From: a virus
Lineage: Duplodnaviria > Caudoviricetes
DNA length: 53,474 bases
Virus record (IMG/VR): IMGVR_UViG_3300021519_000014
Span: 1 to 53,474 of that record
Reading direction: 5' to 3' (one strand)
Below, one piece after another: positions 2,556-15,109 of this stretch. The notes beneath the pieces are model-generated. The model did no database searches and had not been told where the DNA came from. It saw only the letters and a list, made by a program, of their open reading frames with translations. Numbering within the stretch: the stretch's first letter is position 1; each line of letters begins with the position of its first letter. The position numbers and the translations under genes were made by a program.

Positions 2556-2768
2556 ATGGCCAAGCTCACCCCCGGGCAGCGCGCGGAGAGCATGCGCCGC
2601 TGGCACGCCTCGCGCACCCCCGAAGAGCGGCGGGCCGTCGGGTTCAAGGGGTACATGACGCGCCAGAAGAACCGAGGCCTTACGGGGAGGCTGGTCGCCT
2701 CCAGCTGGGACCTCGACGACGAGGTTGACGACGCCTCCGGACTGCCCCATAATCGAGACATCGAATAG
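2556..2768 (+). CDS. Small basic hypothetical protein (paralog of previous gene)
   Basis: Abuts previous stop; LTPGQR...MRRWHASRT motif. Confidence 0.6.
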   Translation: MAKLTPGQRAESMRRWHASRTPEERRAVGFKGYMTRQKNRGLTGRLVASSWDLDDEVDDASGLPHNRDIE

Positions 2769-2774
2769 GAGATA
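2725..2774 (+). promoter_or_regulatory. Repeated early promoter + RBS block, copy 2
   Basis: TTGACG-17 nt-CATAAT followed by gacatcgaatAGGAGata. Confidence 0.75.
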
Positions 2775-2779
2775 TCATA

Positions 2780-3046
2780 ATGGCTCAGATCAGCACCCGC
2801 CGCGTCACTTGGAGTTCCATCGTCGGCGCGGCCGCCTTCCGCGAGGGCATCGAGGACTATCAGGCGGGCCGCGCCCCCGACTACGACAGGGACAAGAACT
2901 TCTGGCAGTACGAGCGCGGCCGGCAGTACGCCGCCGCCTGCGCCGGCCTCGGCCGCGCGCCGCAGCCCACTCGCAGCGGGCGCAGTGTCAGCCGGTTCGC
3001 CATCGCCGACTTCGGCCGCCAGTACGGCCCCAACGGCATCCTCTAG
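2780..3046 (+). CDS. Hypothetical phage protein (88 aa)
   Basis: AGGAG RBS, typical codon usage. Confidence 0.75.
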   Translation: MAQISTRRVTWSSIVGAAAFREGIEDYQAGRAPDYDRDKNFWQYERGRQYAAACAGLGRAPQPTRSGRSVSRFAIADFGRQYGPNGIL

Positions 3047-3058
3047 GGAGATAGGATC

Positions 3059-3244
3059 ATGATCAATCTGCTTACCGCCATCGACTACGAGGCCACGTAC
3101 TGGAAGTGGCTGAGGTACACCGCGGCCGCGCGCCGGCTCGACGCCCAGAACCCCGACGACACCCGCAAGGTGTTCACGCAGCTCTACCGTGCGCTTGCGG
3201 GCGACGACGTAGTCGTCCGCTTCCCCGGCGAGAGGAGCCTGTGA
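3059..3244 (+). CDS. Hypothetical protein (61 aa)
   Basis: GGAG/AGGA upstream; stop overlaps next start. Confidence 0.65.
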   Translation: MINLLTAIDYEATYWKWLRYTAAARRLDAQNPDDTRKVFTQLYRALAGDDVVVRFPGERSL

Positions 3245-3600
3245 TGGACTACGCAGAGATCTGGGCCGAGGCGTGGACGGCCGGCATCATGGCCGGCCTC
3301 GCCTGCCGCCCCACCCCGATGGTCGTCGAGTATCACAAAAGCAAGACCCTGTACGTCGTCGAAATCGTCGACGACGGCGCCTGCGGCTTCGCTTGGATCA
3401 AGATCCGGCCCGCCAATGCCAAACTGGCGCGCTGGCTGAAGGCGCAGAAGCTCGGCCACAAAGCCTACAACGGCGGCTGGGACGTCAGCGTCCACGACTT
3501 CGGCCAGAGCTTGGAGCGCAAGGCAAGCGCCGCGCGCGCCACGGCCGCCGTGCTGGTCAAGCACGGCATCGACGCAACCTCTTACAACAGGATGGACTGA
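3244..3600 (+). CDS. Conserved-type hypothetical phage protein (118 aa)
   Basis: GAGGAG RBS, TGATG coupling; DDGACGFAWIKIRP motif resembles a widespread phage family. Confidence 0.7.
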   Translation: MDYAEIWAEAWTAGIMAGLACRPTPMVVEYHKSKTLYVVEIVDDGACGFAWIKIRPANAKLARWLKAQKLGHKAYNGGWDVSVHDFGQSLERKASAARATAAVLVKHGIDATSYNRMD

Positions 3601-3601
3601 A

Positions 3602-4936
3602 ATGGCCAAGATCGTTCGTATGCCGACGCAGGCGAAGGGCGGCATCACACCCGCCGAGAAGCAGTTGATGGACGAGCATGCGAAGCTCTGGATCTCCCGG
3701 GCGATGCGCACGGACCCCATCGAACCCGCCAAGATCGTTCCGGCAATCGAAGGCATATACGCCGCCGCCGGTTTGAAGAAGCCGCGCGTCGTCATCGTGC
3801 CGTCGCCTCTCGTCATGGCGTTCGCATACGGAGCTGCCGCCGCAATCTGGTACGCCCACACGGCGACCCGCGCGGCGACCCGCGCGGCGACCCGCGCGGC
3901 GACCCACGCGGCGACCGACGCGGCGACCGACGCGGCGACCGACGCGGCGACCCGCGCGGCGACCCGCGCGGCGACCCACGCGGCGACCCACGCGGCGACC
4001 TACGCGGCGACCGACGCGGCGACCTACGCGGCGACCTACGCGGCGACCGACGCGGCGACCCGCGCGGCGACCGACGCGGCGACCGGCGCGGCGACCTACG
4101 CGGCGACCCGCGCGGCGACCCGCGCGGCGACCCGCGCGGCGACCGACGCGGCGACCGACGCGGCGACCGACGCGGCGACCCGCGCGGCGACCGACGCGGC
4201 GATCTACGAGGCGACCGACGCGGCGATCTACGAGGCGACCGACGAGGCGACCCGCGCGGCCTGCTACGATCTGGCGGGGGCTTCTGGGTTAGCGTGCGCC
4301 TCTGAGTGGACGCGCGTTTATCAGGGTGGGAATACGTGGGCCCCATACGAGGCTTACTTGACCGCCGCCCGAGACATTTTGGGGCTGCGCCTGCCGCCGC
4401 ATACAGGCTACGCCGCGTGGGAACAGGCTGCGATCCACGGCGGCTTTCGGGTGATGCACCCGGAATTCTGCATTGTCTCGGACTTCCCTGAAATACTGAA
4501 GGTCGACGCGGAGAACCGGCCCCACTGTGAGACGGGCCCCTCGCATCGGTGGCGCGACGGGTGGTCGCTTTATCATTGGCACGGCGTGAAGATCCCGGCC
4601 GAGTGGATTGAAAACAAGGCCTCGCTCACGGCGAAGACCGCGTTGACGTGGCCCAACGTCGAGCAGCGCCGCGCGGCTTGCGAGATATTGAGCTGGGCCG
4701 TGGTCTTGAAAGAACTGAAGGCCAAGACAATTGACCGCGACGACGACCCTGAGATCGGCGAGCTTGTCGAAGTAACGCTCGAAGGCAGCCGCGAGAGGTT
4801 CATCAAAGTATTGTGCGGAACTTCGCGTGAATTTGCGTTGCCGGTGCCCCCCGAAACCAAAACGGCGTTGGAAGGGAATGCTTGGTCCTACGGCGTCGAA
4901 CCTGATCTTCTCAAGCACATCGAAGTGAGGACGTGA
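3602..4936 (+). CDS. DUF6745-like protein with internal tetrapeptide repeat array
   Basis: C-terminal ENRPHCETGPSHRWRDGWSLYHWHGV...NVEQRRA pattern; central (ATxA)n array. Confidence 0.7.
   Translation: MAKIVRMPTQAKGGITPAEKQLMDEHAKLWISRAMRTDPIEPAKIVPAIEGIYAAAGLKKPRVVIVPSPLVMAFAYGAAAAIWYAHTATRAATRAATRAATHAATDAATDAATDAATRAATRAATHAATHAATYAATDAATYAATYAATDAATRAATDAATGAATYAATRAATRAATRAATDAATDAATDAATRAATDAAIYEATDAAIYEATDEATRAACYDLAGASGLACASEWTRVYQGGNTWAPYEAYLTAARDILGLRLPPHTGYAAWEQAAIHGGFRVMHPEFCIVSDFPEILKVDAENRPHCETGPSHRWRDGWSLYHWHGVKIPAEWIENKASLTAKTALTWPNVEQRRAACEILSWAVVLKELKAKTIDRDDDPEIGELVEVTLEGSRERFIKVLCGTSREFALPVPPETKTALEGNAWSYGVEPDLLKHIEVRT
3863..4258 (+). repeat. 12-bp tandem repeat, ~33 units (gcgaccNNcgcg) encoding ATxA
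   Basis: Read directly; variable codon cgc/cac/gac/tac/ggc; last units degenerate (AIYE, ATDE). Confidence 0.95.
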
Positions 4937-8432: not shown

Positions 8433-9551
8433 TTGCAACACGCACCCTTCGGATCGTCGACTGCCGAGCGCGTCATCAACTGCCCCGGCTCCGTCGCCCT
8501 CTCAGCCAAATCACCCGAACAGCCCGCGAGCGAATACGCCGCGAAGGGCAGCGCGCAGCACGCCCTGATCGAGCACCTCCTGCTTGAAGGCGGCGAGCCC
8601 AAGGACTTCATCGGCGCGATGTTCGCCGGCGTCGAGATCGACGAGGAGTTGTCCGACGGCGTCAAGATCGCGCTCGACGCAGCCGAGAAGCTCCTCGAAG
8701 ATTTCGCCGGCGACCAGCTCGTCGAGCAGCGGCTTGTCATCGTCGAGAACGAGATCTTCGGCACCGGCGACGTCATCGGCATTTCAGGCGACGGGACGCG
8801 CGCCCTGATCGCGGATCACAAGTTCGGCTACGTGGAAGTCTCCCCCGACAGTTTGCAGTTGAAGTTCCTCGCCGCCGCGCTGCTCGCGGATCCCGCGATG
8901 GCCGCCGTCGCGAAAGACATCGAGGAGTTCGAGTTGGCGATCATCCAGCCCGCCTTCGACCCGTGCGTCACGAAGGCGACGGTGACGCGCGCCGAAGTCG
9001 AGGTCTTCCTGCGCACGATCAAGCTGGCGCACTCGGCCAGCAAGGTACCCTCCGCAGAAGTCCGCATTGGCAAGTGGTGCAAGTGGTGTCGCGCCAAGGC
9101 GATCTGCCCCGCGCAGCGCCAGATGTTCGCGGACCTGATCGACGTGAAGGTTCACCCCGGCTGGTCGCCCGCGGAGCTGGGCGACATGCTGGTCAAGGCG
9201 AAGCAGGTCGAAGACCTGATCGAGAGCATCAAGGAGCGCGTGAAGCACGAGCTGGCGAACGGCAGGACCGTGCCGGGCTGGCGCCTCAAGGCGGGCTCGA
9301 CGCGCATGGCGTGGGCCCAGAGCGTCAAGGATACCATCGCCGCGCTGCGGGGCCTCGGGCTCAAGGGCGACAAGGCCATTCAACCCATCACCCCGGCGGC
9401 CGCCAAGAAGGCGCTGGGAGAGCTTCCCGACGATCTCGTCGTGAAGAACACGAGCGCGCCTTCGCTCGCTCGTGACACCGACGCCGCAGACGCTGTCCTG
9501 CCGGTGGCGGCCTTTGCAAAGGCAGCAGCACTGTTAGAAGGAACTAGGTAA
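8433..9551 (+). CDS. Cas4-like PD-(D/E)xK exonuclease (DUF2800-like)
   Basis: HAPFGSSTAERVINCPGS, GTGD...IADHKFG, WCKWCRAKAICP. Confidence 0.85.
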   Translation: MQHAPFGSSTAERVINCPGSVALSAKSPEQPASEYAAKGSAQHALIEHLLLEGGEPKDFIGAMFAGVEIDEELSDGVKIALDAAEKLLEDFAGDQLVEQRLVIVENEIFGTGDVIGISGDGTRALIADHKFGYVEVSPDSLQLKFLAAALLADPAMAAVAKDIEEFELAIIQPAFDPCVTKATVTRAEVEVFLRTIKLAHSASKVPSAEVRIGKWCKWCRAKAICPAQRQMFADLIDVKVHPGWSPAELGDMLVKAKQVEDLIESIKERVKHELANGRTVPGWRLKAGSTRMAWAQSVKDTIAALRGLGLKGDKAIQPITPAAAKKALGELPDDLVVKNTSAPSLARDTDAADAVLPVAAFAKAAALLEGTR

Positions 9552-10238
9552 ATGAGCAATCAAATGAGCCTCTTCTCGAACGGGGGCCTCCCCCCGGCTG
9601 ACCGCAACGCCTACAAGCAGTCGATCAAGGCGATGTCGGCCGCGGCGAAGTCGACGATGGGCGGCATGCCGTTCCTGCGCATGGGCAAGGACGGCGAGTG
9701 GGTCTACGGCGCCGACAACACCGAGGTCGAGGAGAACAGCCTCTGGGCCGTGAACCCGTTCTCGATGGCCCTCGGCTTCATCGCGTGGGGGACCGGGGCG
9801 CAGGAGGGCACCGTGCTGGGCGAGCAGCTGGCTCGCGTCGGCGAGGTGCCGGTGCAGCGGGGCAACCTGCAGGACGTCGGGGCCGAGTGGACGCCGTGCT
9901 GCGCGTTCGAGCTGGTCTGCCTCACCGGCGAGGATAAGGGGACGCACGTCCTCTACAAGACCAACTCGGTCGGCGGCCGCCGCGCGTTCGCCGACATGAT
10001 GCAGCTGGTTGCGGCAGCGATGGAGGACGAGGCCGAGGGCAAGTGCGTCCCCATCGTCAACCTCGACTGCGACAGCTACCCGCACAAGAAGTACGGCAAG
10101 ATCTACACGCCGATCTTCGACATCAAGAAGTGGGTCATGACCGACGCCGAGGAGCTTGGGGGCGCGCCGGCCAAGGAAGAGGTGGAGGCACCGGCGAAGC
10201 CTGCCGAGGAGGGCACGGTTCGTCGCCGCCGTCGCTGA
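9552..10238 (+). CDS. Putative ssDNA-binding protein
   Basis: Lies between Cas4-like nuclease and polymerase; acidic C-terminal tail; function inferred from synteny. Confidence 0.55.
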   Translation: MSNQMSLFSNGGLPPADRNAYKQSIKAMSAAAKSTMGGMPFLRMGKDGEWVYGADNTEVEENSLWAVNPFSMALGFIAWGTGAQEGTVLGEQLARVGEVPVQRGNLQDVGAEWTPCCAFELVCLTGEDKGTHVLYKTNSVGGRRAFADMMQLVAAAMEDEAEGKCVPIVNLDCDSYPHKKYGKIYTPIFDIKKWVMTDAEELGGAPAKEEVEAPAKPAEEGTVRRRRR

Positions 10239-10280: not shown

Positions 10281-12821
10281 ATGGAGAATAGCATGGGATT
10301 GATACTGAGTTTGGACTATGAGACGCAAAGCGCGCTCGACCTGACCAAGATCGGCGCTTACCGCTACGCCCAGAGCGCCAAGATCATGTGCGCCGGCTAC
10401 GCGATCTACGAAGAGAACACGTTCAAGCCCGAAATGGTGAAGCCGTGGCGCGCTTGGAAGGGCGAGCCGATGCCGGGCGACCTGCTCGCGGCGCTGTCCG
10501 ACGAGAGCGTCAGGAAGTTCGCGTGGAACGCCCAGTTCGAGCGCCTGATCACGCTGCACGCCGCGGGCCTCGCGGTGCCGCAGGAGCAGTGGTTTTGCAC
10601 CGCCGCGCGCGCCCGCGCCTCGGCCTACCCCGGCAAGCTGGACCTGTGCGCGAAGGCGCTGGCGATCCCGCAGAAGAAGGATCTGGCGGGCGGCAAGCTG
10701 ATGAAGAAGCTCTCGACTGAGGGCACCGGGACCGAGGAGGAGTACGAGCGCGTCCTCGAATACTGCATGCAGGATGTTGTCGTCGAGGCGACCATCGGCA
10801 TGGTCGTCCGCGACCTGACACGCGAGGAGTGGAAGGACTACCACGTCTGCGAGCGCATGAACGACCGCGGCATTCCCATCGACGCCGATCTGGCGCGCGC
10901 GGCGCAGAGCTATGCCGAGGTCGAGGCGGCAGAAATTGCCAAGGAATTAAATGCCGCGACGGGCGGCGCGATCACCAGCGCGAAGCAGTTCGCCCGCATC
11001 AAGCAGTGGGTCGCCGTGAAGGCGCCCGAGATTGCCGAGCAGTTTACCGACGAGGAGACGGGCAAGTTCTCGCTCGACAGGTCGGCGCGCACCGCCATCT
11101 TCGAGAGCGACCTGAACCTCAGCGAGGAAGTCCGCGAGGTGCTGGAGCTGATCGACGACGCCGGGCGCGCGAGCACGGCCAAGTACGCCGCCATCGAGAA
11201 CCGCACCGACACCGACGGCCGGTTGCGCGGCGCGTACCTGTTCAACGGTGCGGGGCAGACTGGCAGATACTCCGCCATGGGATTTCAGCCGCATAATCTG
11301 GTGCGCGACAAGCTCGACAACAGCGGCGACGTGATCGAGGCCGTGCTCGACGGGGCCTCTGCCGACGAGGTCACGACGCTCTCCGGGCAGAACATGCTGA
11401 CGACGCTGGCGCGCATGCTGCGCCCGACCATCGTCGCGGAGAACGGCAACGTGCTGGTCTGGGCCGACTACTCGGCCGTCGAGGCACGCGCCCTGCCGTG
11501 GCTCTCGGGGACACAGGACGCGGAGCCCCTGCTCGATCTCTTCCGCAAGAACGAGGACGTCTACAAGCACGCGGCGTCGGGCATCTACGGCGTGCGCGCA
11601 GACGCTGTAGACAAGGCGCAGAGGCAAATCGGAAAAATTTCCACATTGGCTCTAGGGTACGGCGGCGGAGCAAACGCCTTCCGCAAGATGGCGCGCGCCT
11701 ACGGTCTGAAGATCACCGACACCGTCGCAGAAGAGATCAAGGTCGCGTGGCGTCTGGCGAACCCGTGGGCGAAGACTTTCTGGCGCGATCTGGAGACGGC
11801 AGCGATCCTCGCTGTGCGCCACCCCGGCGACGTCGCAGAGGCGGGTCGCATCAAGTACCTGATGCACGGCGACATGCTCTACGCGCTGCTGCCCTGCGGG
11901 CGCCTGATCGCGTACCCGGAAGTCGAGCTGGTGGAGATCGAGGGCAAGTACGGCCCGCAGCCTCGCCTGACGGCGCTGAAGGCCTCGATGCACCCGAAGA
12001 AGGGCGAGACGGCGTGGCCCCGCGTTGCACTCTATGGTGGTCTGCTCGCCGAGAACTGCCTCGCCGGTGACACGGAAGTGCTGACGCCCGATGGATGGGT
12101 CGAACTGGCCGATGTGGGCGCGCGTCCCGTGTGGGATGGTGTCGAATTCGTGCGGCACGACGGCGTCATCGCCAAGGGTATTCGGTTGACCGGCAGGCTG
12201 GACGGGGTCCGCCTGACGTCGGATCATAAAGTGCTCACTGCGAAAGGATGGGTCGATGCCTCGGAAGCGGAAGGATTTGACAGGGCAAGTGTTCGGGCGC
12301 TTGACGGCTATAGCGCCGGTGGACAGCGCGCAGGGGTATGGGCCAGAGAATTGCCGCTGGGCTACGCGAGCGGAGCAGGCGCGGAATACCCGACGCTCCC
12401 GGTTCATCGACACACCATGGGGGCGCATGATGGTGGCGGGCGCAGCGGAACGGTCGGGCATCGGGGTGACGACATTGCTGTACCGTTTGGGGCGTGGGAA
12501 CCCGCTGTTCACGAAGCCGTCTACGACATCCTGAATTGCGGCCCTCGACAGAGGTTTGTTGTGCGCGGCCATTCGGGTCCTTTCATCGTGCACAACTGCA
12601 CGCAGGCATTCTGCGCCTCCCTGCTGCGCACCGCCGTGCGCCACCTCGACGACGCCGGGTGGCCCGTCGTCATGCACACGCACGACGAGGTTCTCGTTGA
12701 AGTCGGGGAGGATGAGATCGAGGAGGCCAAGGCAGCGTTGCAGGAGGCGATGCTGACGAACCCGTGGCCGGACTTACCCCTTGCCGCCGAACCGGAGTAC
12801 GGATACAGCTACGACAAGTAG
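10281..12821 (+). CDS. DNA polymerase family A with 3'-5' exonuclease domain, intein-containing (start may be 10293)
   Basis: LDYET (ExoI), AWNAQFE (ExoII), YCMQDV (ExoIII), TGRYS, ADYSAVEAR (motif A), RQIGK..LALGYG (B), HTHDEV (C). Confidence 0.95.
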   Translation: MENSMGLILSLDYETQSALDLTKIGAYRYAQSAKIMCAGYAIYEENTFKPEMVKPWRAWKGEPMPGDLLAALSDESVRKFAWNAQFERLITLHAAGLAVPQEQWFCTAARARASAYPGKLDLCAKALAIPQKKDLAGGKLMKKLSTEGTGTEEEYERVLEYCMQDVVVEATIGMVVRDLTREEWKDYHVCERMNDRGIPIDADLARAAQSYAEVEAAEIAKELNAATGGAITSAKQFARIKQWVAVKAPEIAEQFTDEETGKFSLDRSARTAIFESDLNLSEEVREVLELIDDAGRASTAKYAAIENRTDTDGRLRGAYLFNGAGQTGRYSAMGFQPHNLVRDKLDNSGDVIEAVLDGASADEVTTLSGQNMLTTLARMLRPTIVAENGNVLVWADYSAVEARALPWLSGTQDAEPLLDLFRKNEDVYKHAASGIYGVRADAVDKAQRQIGKISTLALGYGGGANAFRKMARAYGLKITDTVAEEIKVAWRLANPWAKTFWRDLETAAILAVRHPGDVAEAGRIKYLMHGDMLYALLPCGRLIAYPEVELVEIEGKYGPQPRLTALKASMHPKKGETAWPRVALYGGLLAENCLAGDTEVLTPDGWVELADVGARPVWDGVEFVRHDGVIAKGIRLTGRLDGVRLTSDHKVLTAKGWVDASEAEGFDRASVRALDGYSAGGQRAGVWARELPLGYASGAGAEYPTLPVHRHTMGAHDGGGRSGTVGHRGDDIAVPFGAWEPAVHEAVYDILNCGPRQRFVVRGHSGPFIVHNCTQAFCASLLRTAVRHLDDAGWPVVMHTHDEVLVEVGEDEIEEAKAALQEAMLTNPWPDLPLAAEPEYGYSYDK
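12057..12596 (+). mobile_element. Intein (180 aa) in DNA polymerase
   Basis: Starts CLAGDTEVLTPDG, block B LTSDHKVLT, block F VYDI, ends IVHN followed by Cys+1; removal restores GGLLAEN-CTQA. Confidence 0.93.
12256..12534 (+). CDS. Nested +1-frame ORF in intein: internally deleted HNH homing-endonuclease derivative (92 aa)
   Basis: KDLTGQVFGRLT and GYGPENCRWATRAEQARNTR motifs plus a C-terminal HTH-like segment; AAAGGA 7 nt before ATG. Confidence 0.7.
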   Translation: MPRKRKDLTGQVFGRLTAIAPVDSAQGYGPENCRWATRAEQARNTRRSRFIDTPWGRMMVAGAAERSGIGVTTLLYRLGRGNPLFTKPSTTS

Positions 12822-12829
12822 AGGTTGAT

Positions 12830-15109
12830 ATGGAATTGAATATATTCATGGGACACGTCTTCGGTGACGTGCCCGACGACGAAATCATCGGCATCGTCCA
12901 ACGCGGCAAAGATGGCCGGGGTTGGCAGGTTACACCCTACAGGCAGGGCCGCACGAAGCTGCGCCCCGACGCCGCCAGCTACTACTGCATCTCCACCCTG
13001 AAGAAGCCCCCCGAGGGCGAACCTCTGCGTCGGCTGATGCCGAACATGGCCCGGTGCCACGCCATCGTCCTCGACGACATCGGGACGAAGATCGACGCGG
13101 AGAAGTTCAAGGGCAAGGCCGAGCCGCACTACGTCATGGAGACGTCGGCGGGCAATCATCAGTACGGCCTGCTCTTCGACGGGACGTTGGAGGAGGCGCA
13201 GGTTCTCATCGAGGCCCTGATCGAGGCCGGCTACAGCGACCCCGGCGCCCGCGACGTTCACCGCCTCGTGCGCCTCCCCGGCTCGCTGAACTACAAGAGC
13301 GACCCGCCCTTCGTCGCGCATCTCGTCGGCGAGAACTGGGACCAGCCCGCGTGGACATTCAAGGATCTGTGCGAAGAGTTCGGCCTGACGCCGCGCGAGC
13401 CGACCAGCCTGCGCTCGACCAAGCGCGCGTGGAACGGCGACACGGGCGGCGACGTCATCCTGAAGTGGATCACCGAGAAGGGCATGGCCCTCTCGGAGCC
13501 CAACTCCGACGGCTGGCTGTTCATCGAGTGCCCGTGGGCCGACGAGCATAGCGACGGCCGGCGCGACGCGAAGTGGCAGATCGGGAACGGCACGACGGGC
13601 TCCTATCACTGCTTCCACGGATCCTGCCAGCACCGGACGCAGCGGGAGTTCTTGCTCTGGTGCTCGGAGAACGGCGCGCCCGACTTTGAGGCTGAGGTGA
13701 TCACGCAGGTCACCGTCATCGGCCAGAAGCTGGCGACGATACCGAGGGGTGCCTTCGCGCCGCCGGGCCCTTTGCAGCCCCCGCCGGACGGCACACCTGC
13801 GGGGGACATCCTTACTGGGCTCGTGCTGCAGTACGCCTCGCGGCTGGCGGTGGAGATGCTGCCGACGCTCGAAAAAACGTCGAAGACGAAGACGCCGAAG
13901 GACGTGCAGAAGGCCACCGTCGAGAACGTGCAGTATGTCGTCGCGGAATGCGGGTTCTCCGCGCTAAAAAATCACATGACCGGCGAGGTCGAGCTGACCC
14001 ACGCCGACGCGACTTTCAACGTGTTTAAGAACCCCATGGAGCGAGCCCTGATGACCCGTGAACTGCTGATATCGTTGGCGAACCGCGTCGGCATTTCGTT
14101 GCGCGCCACGCTCGACGAGCTGCTGCACACGCTGGCCGCCAACAACGGGTACCACCCGGTCTATGACTGGATAAAAAACAAACCGTGGGACGGCGTCGAC
14201 CGCTTTCCCGCGCTGGCCGCCGCGCTGGAGGTGCCGAACGAGAAGTGGCGCGACATCGTCCTCCTGCGCTCGTCCATGCAGTCGATTCTGGCTTGGACGA
14301 ACTGGATGCGCGAGACGCCCGTCAGCGTCCCCCACGTCCCCACCCTCAGCGGCCCGCAGGGTTGCGGCAAGTCGACGTTCATCGGGTCGCTGCTGCCGTC
14401 TCAGTGGCGCCTGCTGGAGCAGAGCGCGAACCTCGGCCACGCCAGCAGCAAGGACGACGAGCGCAGGCTCACGAGTTCCCCCCTCGTCGAGCTGTCGGAA
14501 CTGGAGACGGTCATCGGCCGCGTCGAGGCGGGGCACCTCAAGAGTTTCCTCTCGCGCCCCGTCGACAAGATGCGGCTCCCCTACGACCGCACGATCACTA
14601 CGCGCCCCCGCGGCACCACGTTCTGGGGCACCGTCAACGACGGCGTGTATCTCAACGACCCCACCGGGGCGCGCCGTTTCTGGCCTCTTGATGTGGTGAA
14701 GTGCAACGCCTTCCACGGCGTCGACATGCAGCAGTACTGGGCGCAGATGCTGCACCTGTTCAATCAGGGCGAGCCGTGGAACCTGACCCCCGACGAGGCG
14801 AAGCTCCACGCCGTCATCGCCGAGAAACACCGCGTCGAGAGCCCCGCCGAGGGGCGCCTGCAGGAGATGTACGCGCGCAGGAAACACATACCGGAGAAGG
14901 ATTGGACCTTCGCGACCGCGAGCGACATCTCGCGCTACTACCAGCTGCCGGACAACTACCCGACGTTGAGAGCCATCGGCAGCGTGCTGACGAAGATGTT
15001 TGGCGAACGTGCCAGCAATAACGAACGGAAAGGATGGAAAGTGCCGATAAAACAGGTTGAGTTCCGGGCGGGGTTTTCCTCCTACGCCCCTCCCGAGGGA
15101 TCGTCATGA
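12830..15109 (+). CDS. Primase-helicase (RepB-like primase, Zn motif, VapE-like ATPase)
   Basis: IVLDDIG, METSAGNHQYG, LVRLPGSLN; CPW..EH...CFHGSC; Walker A GPQGCGKST; LNDPTGARRFW; GAGG RBS. Confidence 0.9.
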   Translation: MELNIFMGHVFGDVPDDEIIGIVQRGKDGRGWQVTPYRQGRTKLRPDAASYYCISTLKKPPEGEPLRRLMPNMARCHAIVLDDIGTKIDAEKFKGKAEPHYVMETSAGNHQYGLLFDGTLEEAQVLIEALIEAGYSDPGARDVHRLVRLPGSLNYKSDPPFVAHLVGENWDQPAWTFKDLCEEFGLTPREPTSLRSTKRAWNGDTGGDVILKWITEKGMALSEPNSDGWLFIECPWADEHSDGRRDAKWQIGNGTTGSYHCFHGSCQHRTQREFLLWCSENGAPDFEAEVITQVTVIGQKLATIPRGAFAPPGPLQPPPDGTPAGDILTGLVLQYASRLAVEMLPTLEKTSKTKTPKDVQKATVENVQYVVAECGFSALKNHMTGEVELTHADATFNVFKNPMERALMTRELLISLANRVGISLRATLDELLHTLAANNGYHPVYDWIKNKPWDGVDRFPALAAALEVPNEKWRDIVLLRSSMQSILAWTNWMRETPVSVPHVPTLSGPQGCGKSTFIGSLLPSQWRLLEQSANLGHASSKDDERRLTSSPLVELSELETVIGRVEAGHLKSFLSRPVDKMRLPYDRTITTRPRGTTFWGTVNDGVYLNDPTGARRFWPLDVVKCNAFHGVDMQQYWAQMLHLFNQGEPWNLTPDEAKLHAVIAEKHRVESPAEGRLQEMYARRKHIPEKDWTFATASDISRYYQLPDNYPTLRAIGSVLTKMFGERASNNERKGWKVPIKQVEFRAGFSSYAPPEGSS

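Follow-up and report, generated by a model that had tools for sequence, protein, structure and literature searches.

A mini-intein in a phage family A DNA polymerase gene with the probable remnant of a homing nuclease overprinted in the +1 frame

Introduction

Inteins are usually taught as splicing domains that carry an in-frame nuclease, mostly of the LAGLIDADG type. Here we analyze an intein in the family A DNA polymerase (PolA) gene of a metagenomic tailed phage (Caudoviricetes), known from the IMG/VR virus record IMGVR_UViG_3300021519_000014. The record was analyzed over its whole length of 53,474 bases, hereafter called the window, and has an estimated completeness of 94%. Between its splicing blocks B and F this intein contains a nested open reading frame (ORF) in the +1 frame, which a preliminary description of the window had proposed to be the decayed form of an independently translated HNH nuclease. 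As a whole, the locus is best explained by a PolA intein family that carries a +1-overprinted homing nuclease and of which the window holds a deletion remnant; we give this reading a probability of about 0.8.

Out-of-frame or antisense intein nucleases are described in two preprints (bioRxiv 10.1101/2025.01.02.630785 and bioRxiv 10.64898/2026.09.14.751524), both of which cite Gorbalenya 1998, 'Non-canonical inteins'. In the cyanobacterial dnaX intein (bioRxiv 10.64898/2026.09.14.751524) the nuclease lies between the splicing blocks in another frame, as in the PolA family. Selection there is purifying on the nuclease frame and relaxed on the overlapped intein frame, mini-inteins and empty alleles coexist, and a secondary invasion of a mini-intein has been proposed as its origin. 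It differs from the PolA family in nuclease type (LAGLIDADG versus HNH-like), in host gene (dnaX of cellular genomes versus phage PolA) and in register (+2 versus +1, with +2 in three distant cases). Inteins of actinobacteriophages (bioRxiv 10.1101/2025.01.02.630785) also have nucleases encoded apart from the splicing frame, and their authors proposed a capture of free-standing phage nucleases and predicted decay to mini-inteins. In contrast to the PolA family, no out-of-frame HNH-like type is listed among them, and the polymerase host is Pol III alpha.

Two further systems resemble the locus in part. The ShiLan domain (PMC11855218) is a hidden out-of-frame HNH inside a phage methylase whose frame stays open, with a GTG start near the 5′ end of the insertion and a stop in its last bases. 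There, neither a detectable splicing domain nor a ribosome-binding site is reported, and the insert stays in the host protein. In the PolA inteins, in contrast, a complete HINT domain flanks the nested gene, and a Shine-Dalgarno (SD)-like stretch is made of conserved intein codons. Fractured genes (Dassa et al. 2009, PMC2677866) have a free-standing homing nuclease gene between intein halves, with short 3′ coding overlaps. There, however, the host gene is in two pieces and the product depends on trans-splicing, whereas the host frame is continuous in 60 of 60 PolA intein relatives and forms a single 846-codon ORF in the window, which is hence neither a fractured gene nor a split intein.

The P45 intein of the Hamiltonella phage APSE-1 belongs to the same family as that of the window and shares its polymerase site and its +1 register. 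The APSE-1 RefSeq record annotates an 'HNH endonuclease', P46, nested in P45. APSE-1 has a full intein of 306 amino acids with an intact ORF of 216 codons starting from GTG, whereas the window has a mini form of 180 amino acids in which the nuclease core is deleted. Differential intein loss among APSE phages has been described (PMC7313666), and the APSE intein is also cited in PMC549080. In the literature searched we found no discussion of the P45/P46 overlap as an out-of-frame intein nuclease. Likewise, no description of an out-of-frame nuclease in PolA or APSE-type inteins was found; InBase, subscription journals and supplements were outside the scope of this search, and a prior description may exist. 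An out-of-frame intein nuclease is already known as a rare and recent observation; new here are the nuclease family, the host gene and a much wider spread.

Results

Reading frame of the nuclease in related inteins

A pattern scan of IMG/VR yielded 346 intein relatives, of which we classified the best 80 together with three phage records (APSE-1, GB2A and SFCi1); loci are numbered with the prefix L. In this set, homology to the nuclease (about 210 amino acids) was found at +1 in 71 of 71 full-size inteins (259-320 amino acids) and in frame in none. The nested ORF was uninterrupted in 70 of them, with a premature stop in the APSE-like L050 (3255-3902). Over the full-size copies as a whole, a host-frame stop was present in L082 (2501-3427) and L202, and a stop inside the nuclease match in L097 and L216. 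These five broken full-size copies may represent decay in progress or sequencing errors. The inteins of APSE-1, GB2A and SFCi1, all at the same site, have 306-308 amino acids and contain +1 ORFs of 216, 213 and 224 codons, respectively, each with its own GTG or ATG. Twelve loci of the set were mini-inteins of 128-174 amino acids, with +1 vestiges in L006, L012, L030, L037, L038 and L017 and +1-frame stops in L007, L009 and L010.

We also surveyed bacterial contigs, taking one genome per species. The 56 loci obtained were 36 full-size inteins, 14 'mini' rows (one of them mis-parsed) and 6 incomplete copies. Among the full-size inteins, the nuclease was at +1 in 32 and at +2 in three, was never in frame, and gave no hit in one (L227); one of the 'mini' rows had a remnant. 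According to the record titles, the contigs come from Alpha-, Beta- and Gammaproteobacteria, Bacillota, Verrucomicrobia, Spirochaetes, Actinobacteria, Saccharibacteria and others. The three +2 cases, L207, L210 and L211 (about 1501-2364; titled Pseudomonas sp. MAG, Erwinia sp. OLFS4 and Saccharibacteria MAG), occupy a second polymerase site, ...GKxxELA|CGYxGG, in the motif-B region; their nuclease belongs to the same family but is more distant. The +2 register at this second site therefore suggests an independent capture.

Altogether, no in-frame fusion occurred among the approximately 121 full-size or nested copies examined. The preliminary description had named homologues with an in-frame nuclease as the observation that would speak against overprinting. 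No such homologue was found, i.e., the nuclease was at +1 in 71/71 full-size inteins of the first set and out of frame in 35/36 in bacterial contigs. As full-size homologues were never in frame, the overprinting reading survives this comparison.

For the nuclease itself, IMG/VR contains at least 589 relatives. Among the best 80 of these, 65 were free-standing and 14, plus one partial copy, were nested at +1, the nested ones being closest to the query. This distribution fits an origin in which a mini-intein captured a phage nuclease that had been free-standing.

Selection on the two overlapping frames

Codon-position and shuffle tests were carried out on 60 unique full-size inteins, which remained after L050 and L082 had been excluded and exact duplicates collapsed (69 to 60). 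In the nested region, pairwise differences at the three +1 codon positions were 0.439, 0.398 and 0.618. For comparison, the N-terminal splicing region, read in intein codons, gave 0.400, 0.309 and 0.664, again with the third position as the most variable. Since variation in the central stretch peaks at the third position of the +1 codons, selection there reads the +1 frame and, at the level of the family, is purifying on the nuclease. Moreover, mean pairwise amino acid identity over the same alignment columns was 45% in the +1 frame versus 24% in the intein frame. Identity in the extein flanks (25%) mixes different insertion sites and was not used as evidence.

The host frame was open through the nested gene in all 60 inteins. 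When the nested ORF was shuffled synonymously, a mean of 0.2% of the shuffles kept the host frame open, with 2.6-13.6 stops expected, and the third frame was open in 0/60. Both frames are hence maintained, the +1 frame for its protein and the host frame merely to stay open. At the level of the family this is strong evidence for real overprinting and bears out the claim, made from the window alone, that a nuclease is overprinted on the intein.

The nested ORF of the window and its deletion

In the window, the nested ORF (Table 1) begins with an ATG formed within the intein codons GAT GCC, with AAAGGA eight bases ahead of it. Its stop codon TGA (12532-12534) lies inside intein block F (ATC CTG AAT). 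The ORF, the SD-like stretch and start codon derived from the intein residues KGWVDA, and the stop in block F could all be located in the sequence as previously described.

The 92-amino acid product matches two PHROG families labelled HNH endonuclease, phrog_3377 (E-value 3.3e-12) and phrog_374 (9.2e-12). With tblastn it matched, at 60% identity and an E-value of 3e-21, sequences inside the DNA polymerase genes of the Caulobacter phages GB2A, RW, RLK and KcrB. Further matches were found in the polymerase gene of Shewanella phage SFCi1 and in free-standing genes, e.g., orf78 of Pseudomonas phage D3. Judged by these comparisons, homology to nuclease families lies far beyond chance.

We aligned the window with its closest relative L005, which carries a full-length nested nuclease of 204 amino acids, using MAFFT. 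The alignment contains a gap (Table 1) whose placement is ambiguous by a few bases and which removes approximately residues 21-132 of the L005 nuclease. With it, 15 of the 21 residues that are invariant in the nuclease alignment (A3) are gone, including the Cys motifs and R133; six are kept. The window copy, lacking these 336 nucleotides (nt) and 15 residues, is thus no intact nuclease. It retains the N-terminal strand motif, the motif GYGPENCRWAT..EQARN of the second core half and the C-terminal helix-turn-helix. The C-terminal part of the remnant is 93% identical to residues 132-203 of the L005 nuclease, and downstream of the gap the intein DNA of both loci is 92-95% identical. The deletion, which is in frame for both readings, has taken the putative zinc-binding domain and most of the nuclease core. 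That the central catalytic part had been lost, leaving a decayed mini form, had been suspected without a relative for comparison and is confirmed, with this extent, against L005.

The mini-inteins L006 (2501-2971), L190 (1501-1971), L012 and L030 contain +1 remnants like that of the window, in which either the NC.W motif or the helix-turn-helix directly follows the N-terminal motif. The occurrence of like remnants in several mini-inteins indicates that in-frame internal deletions of the nuclease core happened repeatedly.

Predicted fold and family of the nested nuclease

A model of the full-length L005 nuclease (protein P0001) had a mean pLDDT (predicted local distance difference test) score of 93.5. 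It contains an N-terminal β domain with conserved C-x-C and C-G-C motifs, a helical region and a C-terminal helix-turn-helix; the helical region leads into a core of two strands (130-133 and 145-148) and a helix (150-155). When model residues 75-160 were compared by VIA-align, the top match was the HNH enzyme PacI, with a middling Z of 6.3 and a root mean square deviation of 2.1 over 72 residues. A profile of 53 sequences, searched against PDB sequences, had its best match in the HNH motif of I-HmuI at a marginal E-value of 0.025, aligning L-D-R...N-C-R-W...N with V-D-H...N-L-R-W...N. N144 and N156 are invariant in the 53 sequences, align to the two Asn residues of the I-HmuI motif and are both kept in the window remnant. 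A search of PDB sequences with a single nuclease protein gave rows at chance level only.

The full-length nuclease matches phrog_374 with an E-value of 1.2e-52, where 'HNH endonuclease' is an annotation label. Based on the PHROG names, the I-HmuI profile match and the PacI fold, we consider the nested nuclease a putative HNH-like (ββα-Me) enzyme with Arg replacing the first His. Its domain order differs from that of I-HmuI and PacI. PacI is an HNH variant that reportedly uses Tyr in place of that His, and an Arg and Tyr variant would then be plausible for the nested nuclease.

Start of the nested gene

In 34 of the 60 unique inteins, a start codon, i.e., ATG (17), GTG (16) or TTG (1), stands exactly 10 nt after the Gly codon of a conserved Gly-Trp pair behind block B. 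Purine-rich codons, e.g., GAAGGATGG, stand ahead of this common position. In 33/60, the +1 frame has a stop 11 nt before the Gly codon, and all 60 contain some start codon in the interval from the upstream +1-frame stop to the conserved N-terminal motif. The nested ORF of the relatives ends in block F or near block G. In the window, no promoter-like site or terminator was found in 11700..12900; with no promoter inside the polymerase gene, polymerase and nuclease would share one mRNA. Independent initiation of the nested nuclease is the simplest reading of these sequence features.

For APSE-1, the P46 coding sequence (CDS) is annotated from position 2931 of its record (L001, 2931-3353). The conserved ORF, however, begins with a GTG at 2703 (2703-3353, 216 codons), so that the conserved N-terminal motif and the Cys motifs lie within it. 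The deposited P46 annotation hence probably truncates the protein.

Empty alleles of the insertion site

We examined 24 close polymerase relatives in IMG/VR (L165-L188, 73-94% identity). The gene is intein-free in 22 of these, and the other two, the contigs L004 and L005, have a full intein of 292 amino acids. The site reads AEN|CTQ, which would be a usable empty site, in 8 of the 22 intein-free relatives, including the two closest (94% and 93%), and has Ala at position +1 in 14 (13 AEN|ATQ and one AEN|APQ). Alleles with Ala+1 would be unable to splice by means of a +1 nucleophile and are possibly refractory. The sporadic pattern of full, decayed and empty alleles in one polymerase clade fits the homing cycle of Goddard and Burt.

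Discussion

In the proposed mechanism, the host frame would be read straight through, so that a disordered linker connects the two HINT halves, and the HINT domain would excise itself. The nuclease of about 210 codons would be a separate gene, overprinted in the +1 frame between blocks B and F, rather than an in-frame domain. It would be translated from the same mRNA at the internal ATG or GTG 10 nt after Gly-Trp, behind the purine-rich SD-like stretch. The predicted protein would consist of a small Cys-rich N-terminal β domain, a ββα-Me core with Arg and a C-terminal helix-turn-helix. It may cut intein-free AEN|CTQ alleles of co-infecting relatives, and repair would then copy the intein in. 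In the window, the 336-nt deletion has left a mini-intein and a 92-codon remnant. As part of this overall explanation, and with the same probability, the window ORF would be a dead remnant, i.e., the degeneration stage of the homing cycle and a late life stage of a selfish element whose kind is widespread but has seldom been described.

A number of observations weigh against this explanation or parts of it. The openness of the window ORF is not significant, since the +1 frame stayed open over 92 codons in 65% of host-synonymous shuffles; as openness is expected by chance, it is homology that makes this ORF real. Of the 12 differences between the remnant and L005, 8 are non-synonymous when read in the host frame and 6 when read in the nested frame, which is uninformative on selection. 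The frame survey covered 80 of the 346 intein relatives and 80 of the nuclease relatives, which number at least 589, taking the best in each case, and in-frame forms are possible among the rest. A start codon at the common position is missing in 26 of the 60 unique inteins, in which starts occur elsewhere nearby. Also, a Foldseek search of the nuclease model against the PDB had no match at E ≤ 0.001; I-HmuI ranked second (E-value 0.38). The position of the catalytic His of I-HmuI is occupied by Arg (R133), invariant in all 53 sequences, which makes the chemistry uncertain. Pfam recognized HNH in 0/53 members, with helix-turn-helix families as the only matches, and NCBIfam gave nothing for the three proteins scanned. 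The HNH-family motifs that had been read from the +1 ORF of the window are supported by the PHROG labels. They are not backed by Pfam, which assigned no family to the 92-amino acid product, HNH included, nor by the first His, which is Arg in the full-length relatives.

The history of the window intein also involves more than a single internal deletion. Its N-terminal part (about 12090..12310) is 62-75% identical at the nucleotide level to L005 (1940-2160), whereas the polymerase DNA outside this part is 86-100% identical between the two loci. That the divergence stops at the 336-nt deletion points to a recombinant intein. Among the 243 loci compared there was no donor for this part, L005 being the best match with 65% amino acid identity.

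The most serious alternative, which we nevertheless consider unlikely, is that the 92-amino acid remnant still works as a DNA-binding factor, e.g., as a regulator or as a site-binder that aids or hinders a nuclease provided in trans. The ORF has kept its start, SD-like stretch and stop, the helix-turn-helix part is 93% identical to L005, and the mini-inteins L006, L012, L030 and L190 have similar +1 remnants composed of the N-terminus and the helix-turn-helix. The chance openness and the uninformative substitutions described above, however, speak against a function, as does the loss of 15/21 invariant residues. Moreover, the remnant has been lost in L007, L009 and L010, which contain +1 stops. 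Deletions must stay in frame and spare blocks B and F, hence remnants that keep both ends arise by default, without any function.

A production of the nuclease by programmed ribosomal frameshifting, in fusion with the N-extein and the N-terminal intein half, is in our view still less probable. It would agree with a single mRNA, as no internal promoter-like site was found, and with the 26/60 inteins that have no start at the common position. In contrast, 34/60 have the start codon at a single conserved position that follows an SD-like stretch, each of the 60 possesses some start codon, and 33/60 have a +1-frame stop 11 nt before the Gly codon. Free-standing homologues have the same length (65 of the best 80), and in APSE-1 P46 is annotated as a separate CDS.

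That the arrangement is an accident of a single sequence, i.e., compensating frameshifts in an in-frame HNH intein, an assembly error or a chance ORF, is hardly credible: alternative frames are often open in this region of 64% GC, but this explanation is refuted by the +1 register common to 71/71 full-size relatives, which come from independent records and metagenomes and include APSE-1 with 46% GC, and by the absence of in-frame copies among those examined, and the homology E-values exclude chance.

A broader reading of the PolA family suggests itself, to which we give even odds. For this pair of intein and nuclease, overprinting rather than fusion would be the stable, selected state. A free-standing, Arg-variant HNH-like phage nuclease would have been captured by mini-inteins on at least two occasions, in the +1 register at the AEN|C site and in the +2 register at the motif-B site, and would have been kept out of frame in hundreds of phages of many bacterial phyla. 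If this is true, no natural system would be larger or more tractable for a test of the 'splicing first, nuclease captured later' origin of mobile inteins, or for the question of how a gene nested in an essential gene is translated.

In the PolA intein family an out-of-frame nuclease is the rule (71/71, and 35/36 full-size copies in bacterial contigs). The family ranges over phages of Proteobacteria, Firmicutes, Verrucomicrobia and other phyla, with APSE, the Caulobacter phages GB2A and RW and the Shewanella phage SFCi1 as cultured carriers. It offers natural support for inteins gaining nucleases by capture of free-standing phage genes and presents several hundred bases of true dual coding within an essential gene. 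Gene callers and intein surveys that consider in-frame domains only would class such elements as 'inteins without nuclease'. The decay to a mini-intein is documented in the window, where it can be compared with a full-length form in a close relative and with empty alleles. Its main value is as a lead to a large, experimentally tractable family; the remnant itself is of modest interest.

Features of the polymerase gene and its mini-intein

The features of the window are compiled in Table 1. The intein lies exactly where the preliminary description had placed it, and its hallmark motifs and the modelled HINT fold agree with that assignment. It has Cys1 (CLAGDTEVLT), block B with T-x-x-H (TSDHKVLT), block F (VYDILNCGPRQRF) and the C-terminal FIVHN|C; residues C1, T54 and H57 are invariant across 53 relatives. 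An AlphaFold model built on these 53 relatives was submitted to Foldseek, and the top matches were all solved mini-inteins (Ssp DnaB, MchDnaB-1 and Mtu RecA), with a probability of 1.00 and E-values from 2.8e-4 to 1e-3. The terminal, block B and Cys+1 residues, the predicted HINT fold and the insertion at a conserved host site are those of a class-1 intein. With its splicing residues intact, the mini-intein looks splicing-competent as judged from its sequence.

The stretch between blocks B and F, earlier called featureless, indeed has low model confidence in contrast to the splicing parts (pLDDT values in Table 1), and the linker is predicted to be disordered. Read in the intein frame, it had no family match in Pfam.

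Table 1. Positions of the polymerase gene, the mini-intein and the nested reading frame in the window
Feature	Position	Strand	Basis
Family A DNA polymerase gene, 846-amino acid precursor including the intein	10281..12821	+	Pfam DNA_pol_A 5.6e-19; ORF list
Class-1 mini-intein, 180 amino acids, inserted at ...LLAEN|CTQAF...	12057..12596	+	Splicing motifs, AlphaFold/Foldseek, intein-free alleles
N-terminal splicing part, blocks A and B, residues 1-75	12057..12281	+	pLDDT 95-98
SD-like AAAGGA (12242-12247) and ATG (12256-12258) of the nested ORF	12242..12258	+	Built from intein codons K-G-W-V-D-A
Nested +1-frame ORF, 92 codons and TGA, putative nuclease-gene remnant	12256..12534	+	PHROG matches, L005 alignment
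Intein-frame linker, residues 81-145, 'shadow' translation of the nested gene	12297..12491	+	pLDDT 51-57
Deletion junction; compared with L005, 336 nt are missing (112 codons in both frames)	12310..12311	+	MAFFT alignment of window and L005
C-terminal splicing part, blocks F and G, residues 150-180	12504..12596	+	pLDDT 94-97; 94% nucleotide identity to L005
Cys+1 codon of the C-extein	12597..12599	+	Sequence; Cys (8) or Ala (14) there in intein-free relatives

Large ORFs resembling a replication module flank the polymerase gene of the window, i.e., one of 781 amino acids downstream (12764/12831-15109) and two of 372 and 228 amino acids upstream (8433-10238). In APSE-1 and GB2A, the polymerase gene with the intein has a small gene annotated 'endonuclease' directly downstream (P44, L001 3893-4174, and GB2A_gp057, L002 3660-3950, respectively). 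In L037, a free-standing homologue of the nested nuclease (3462-3956) is found just downstream of a polymerase gene with a mini-intein.

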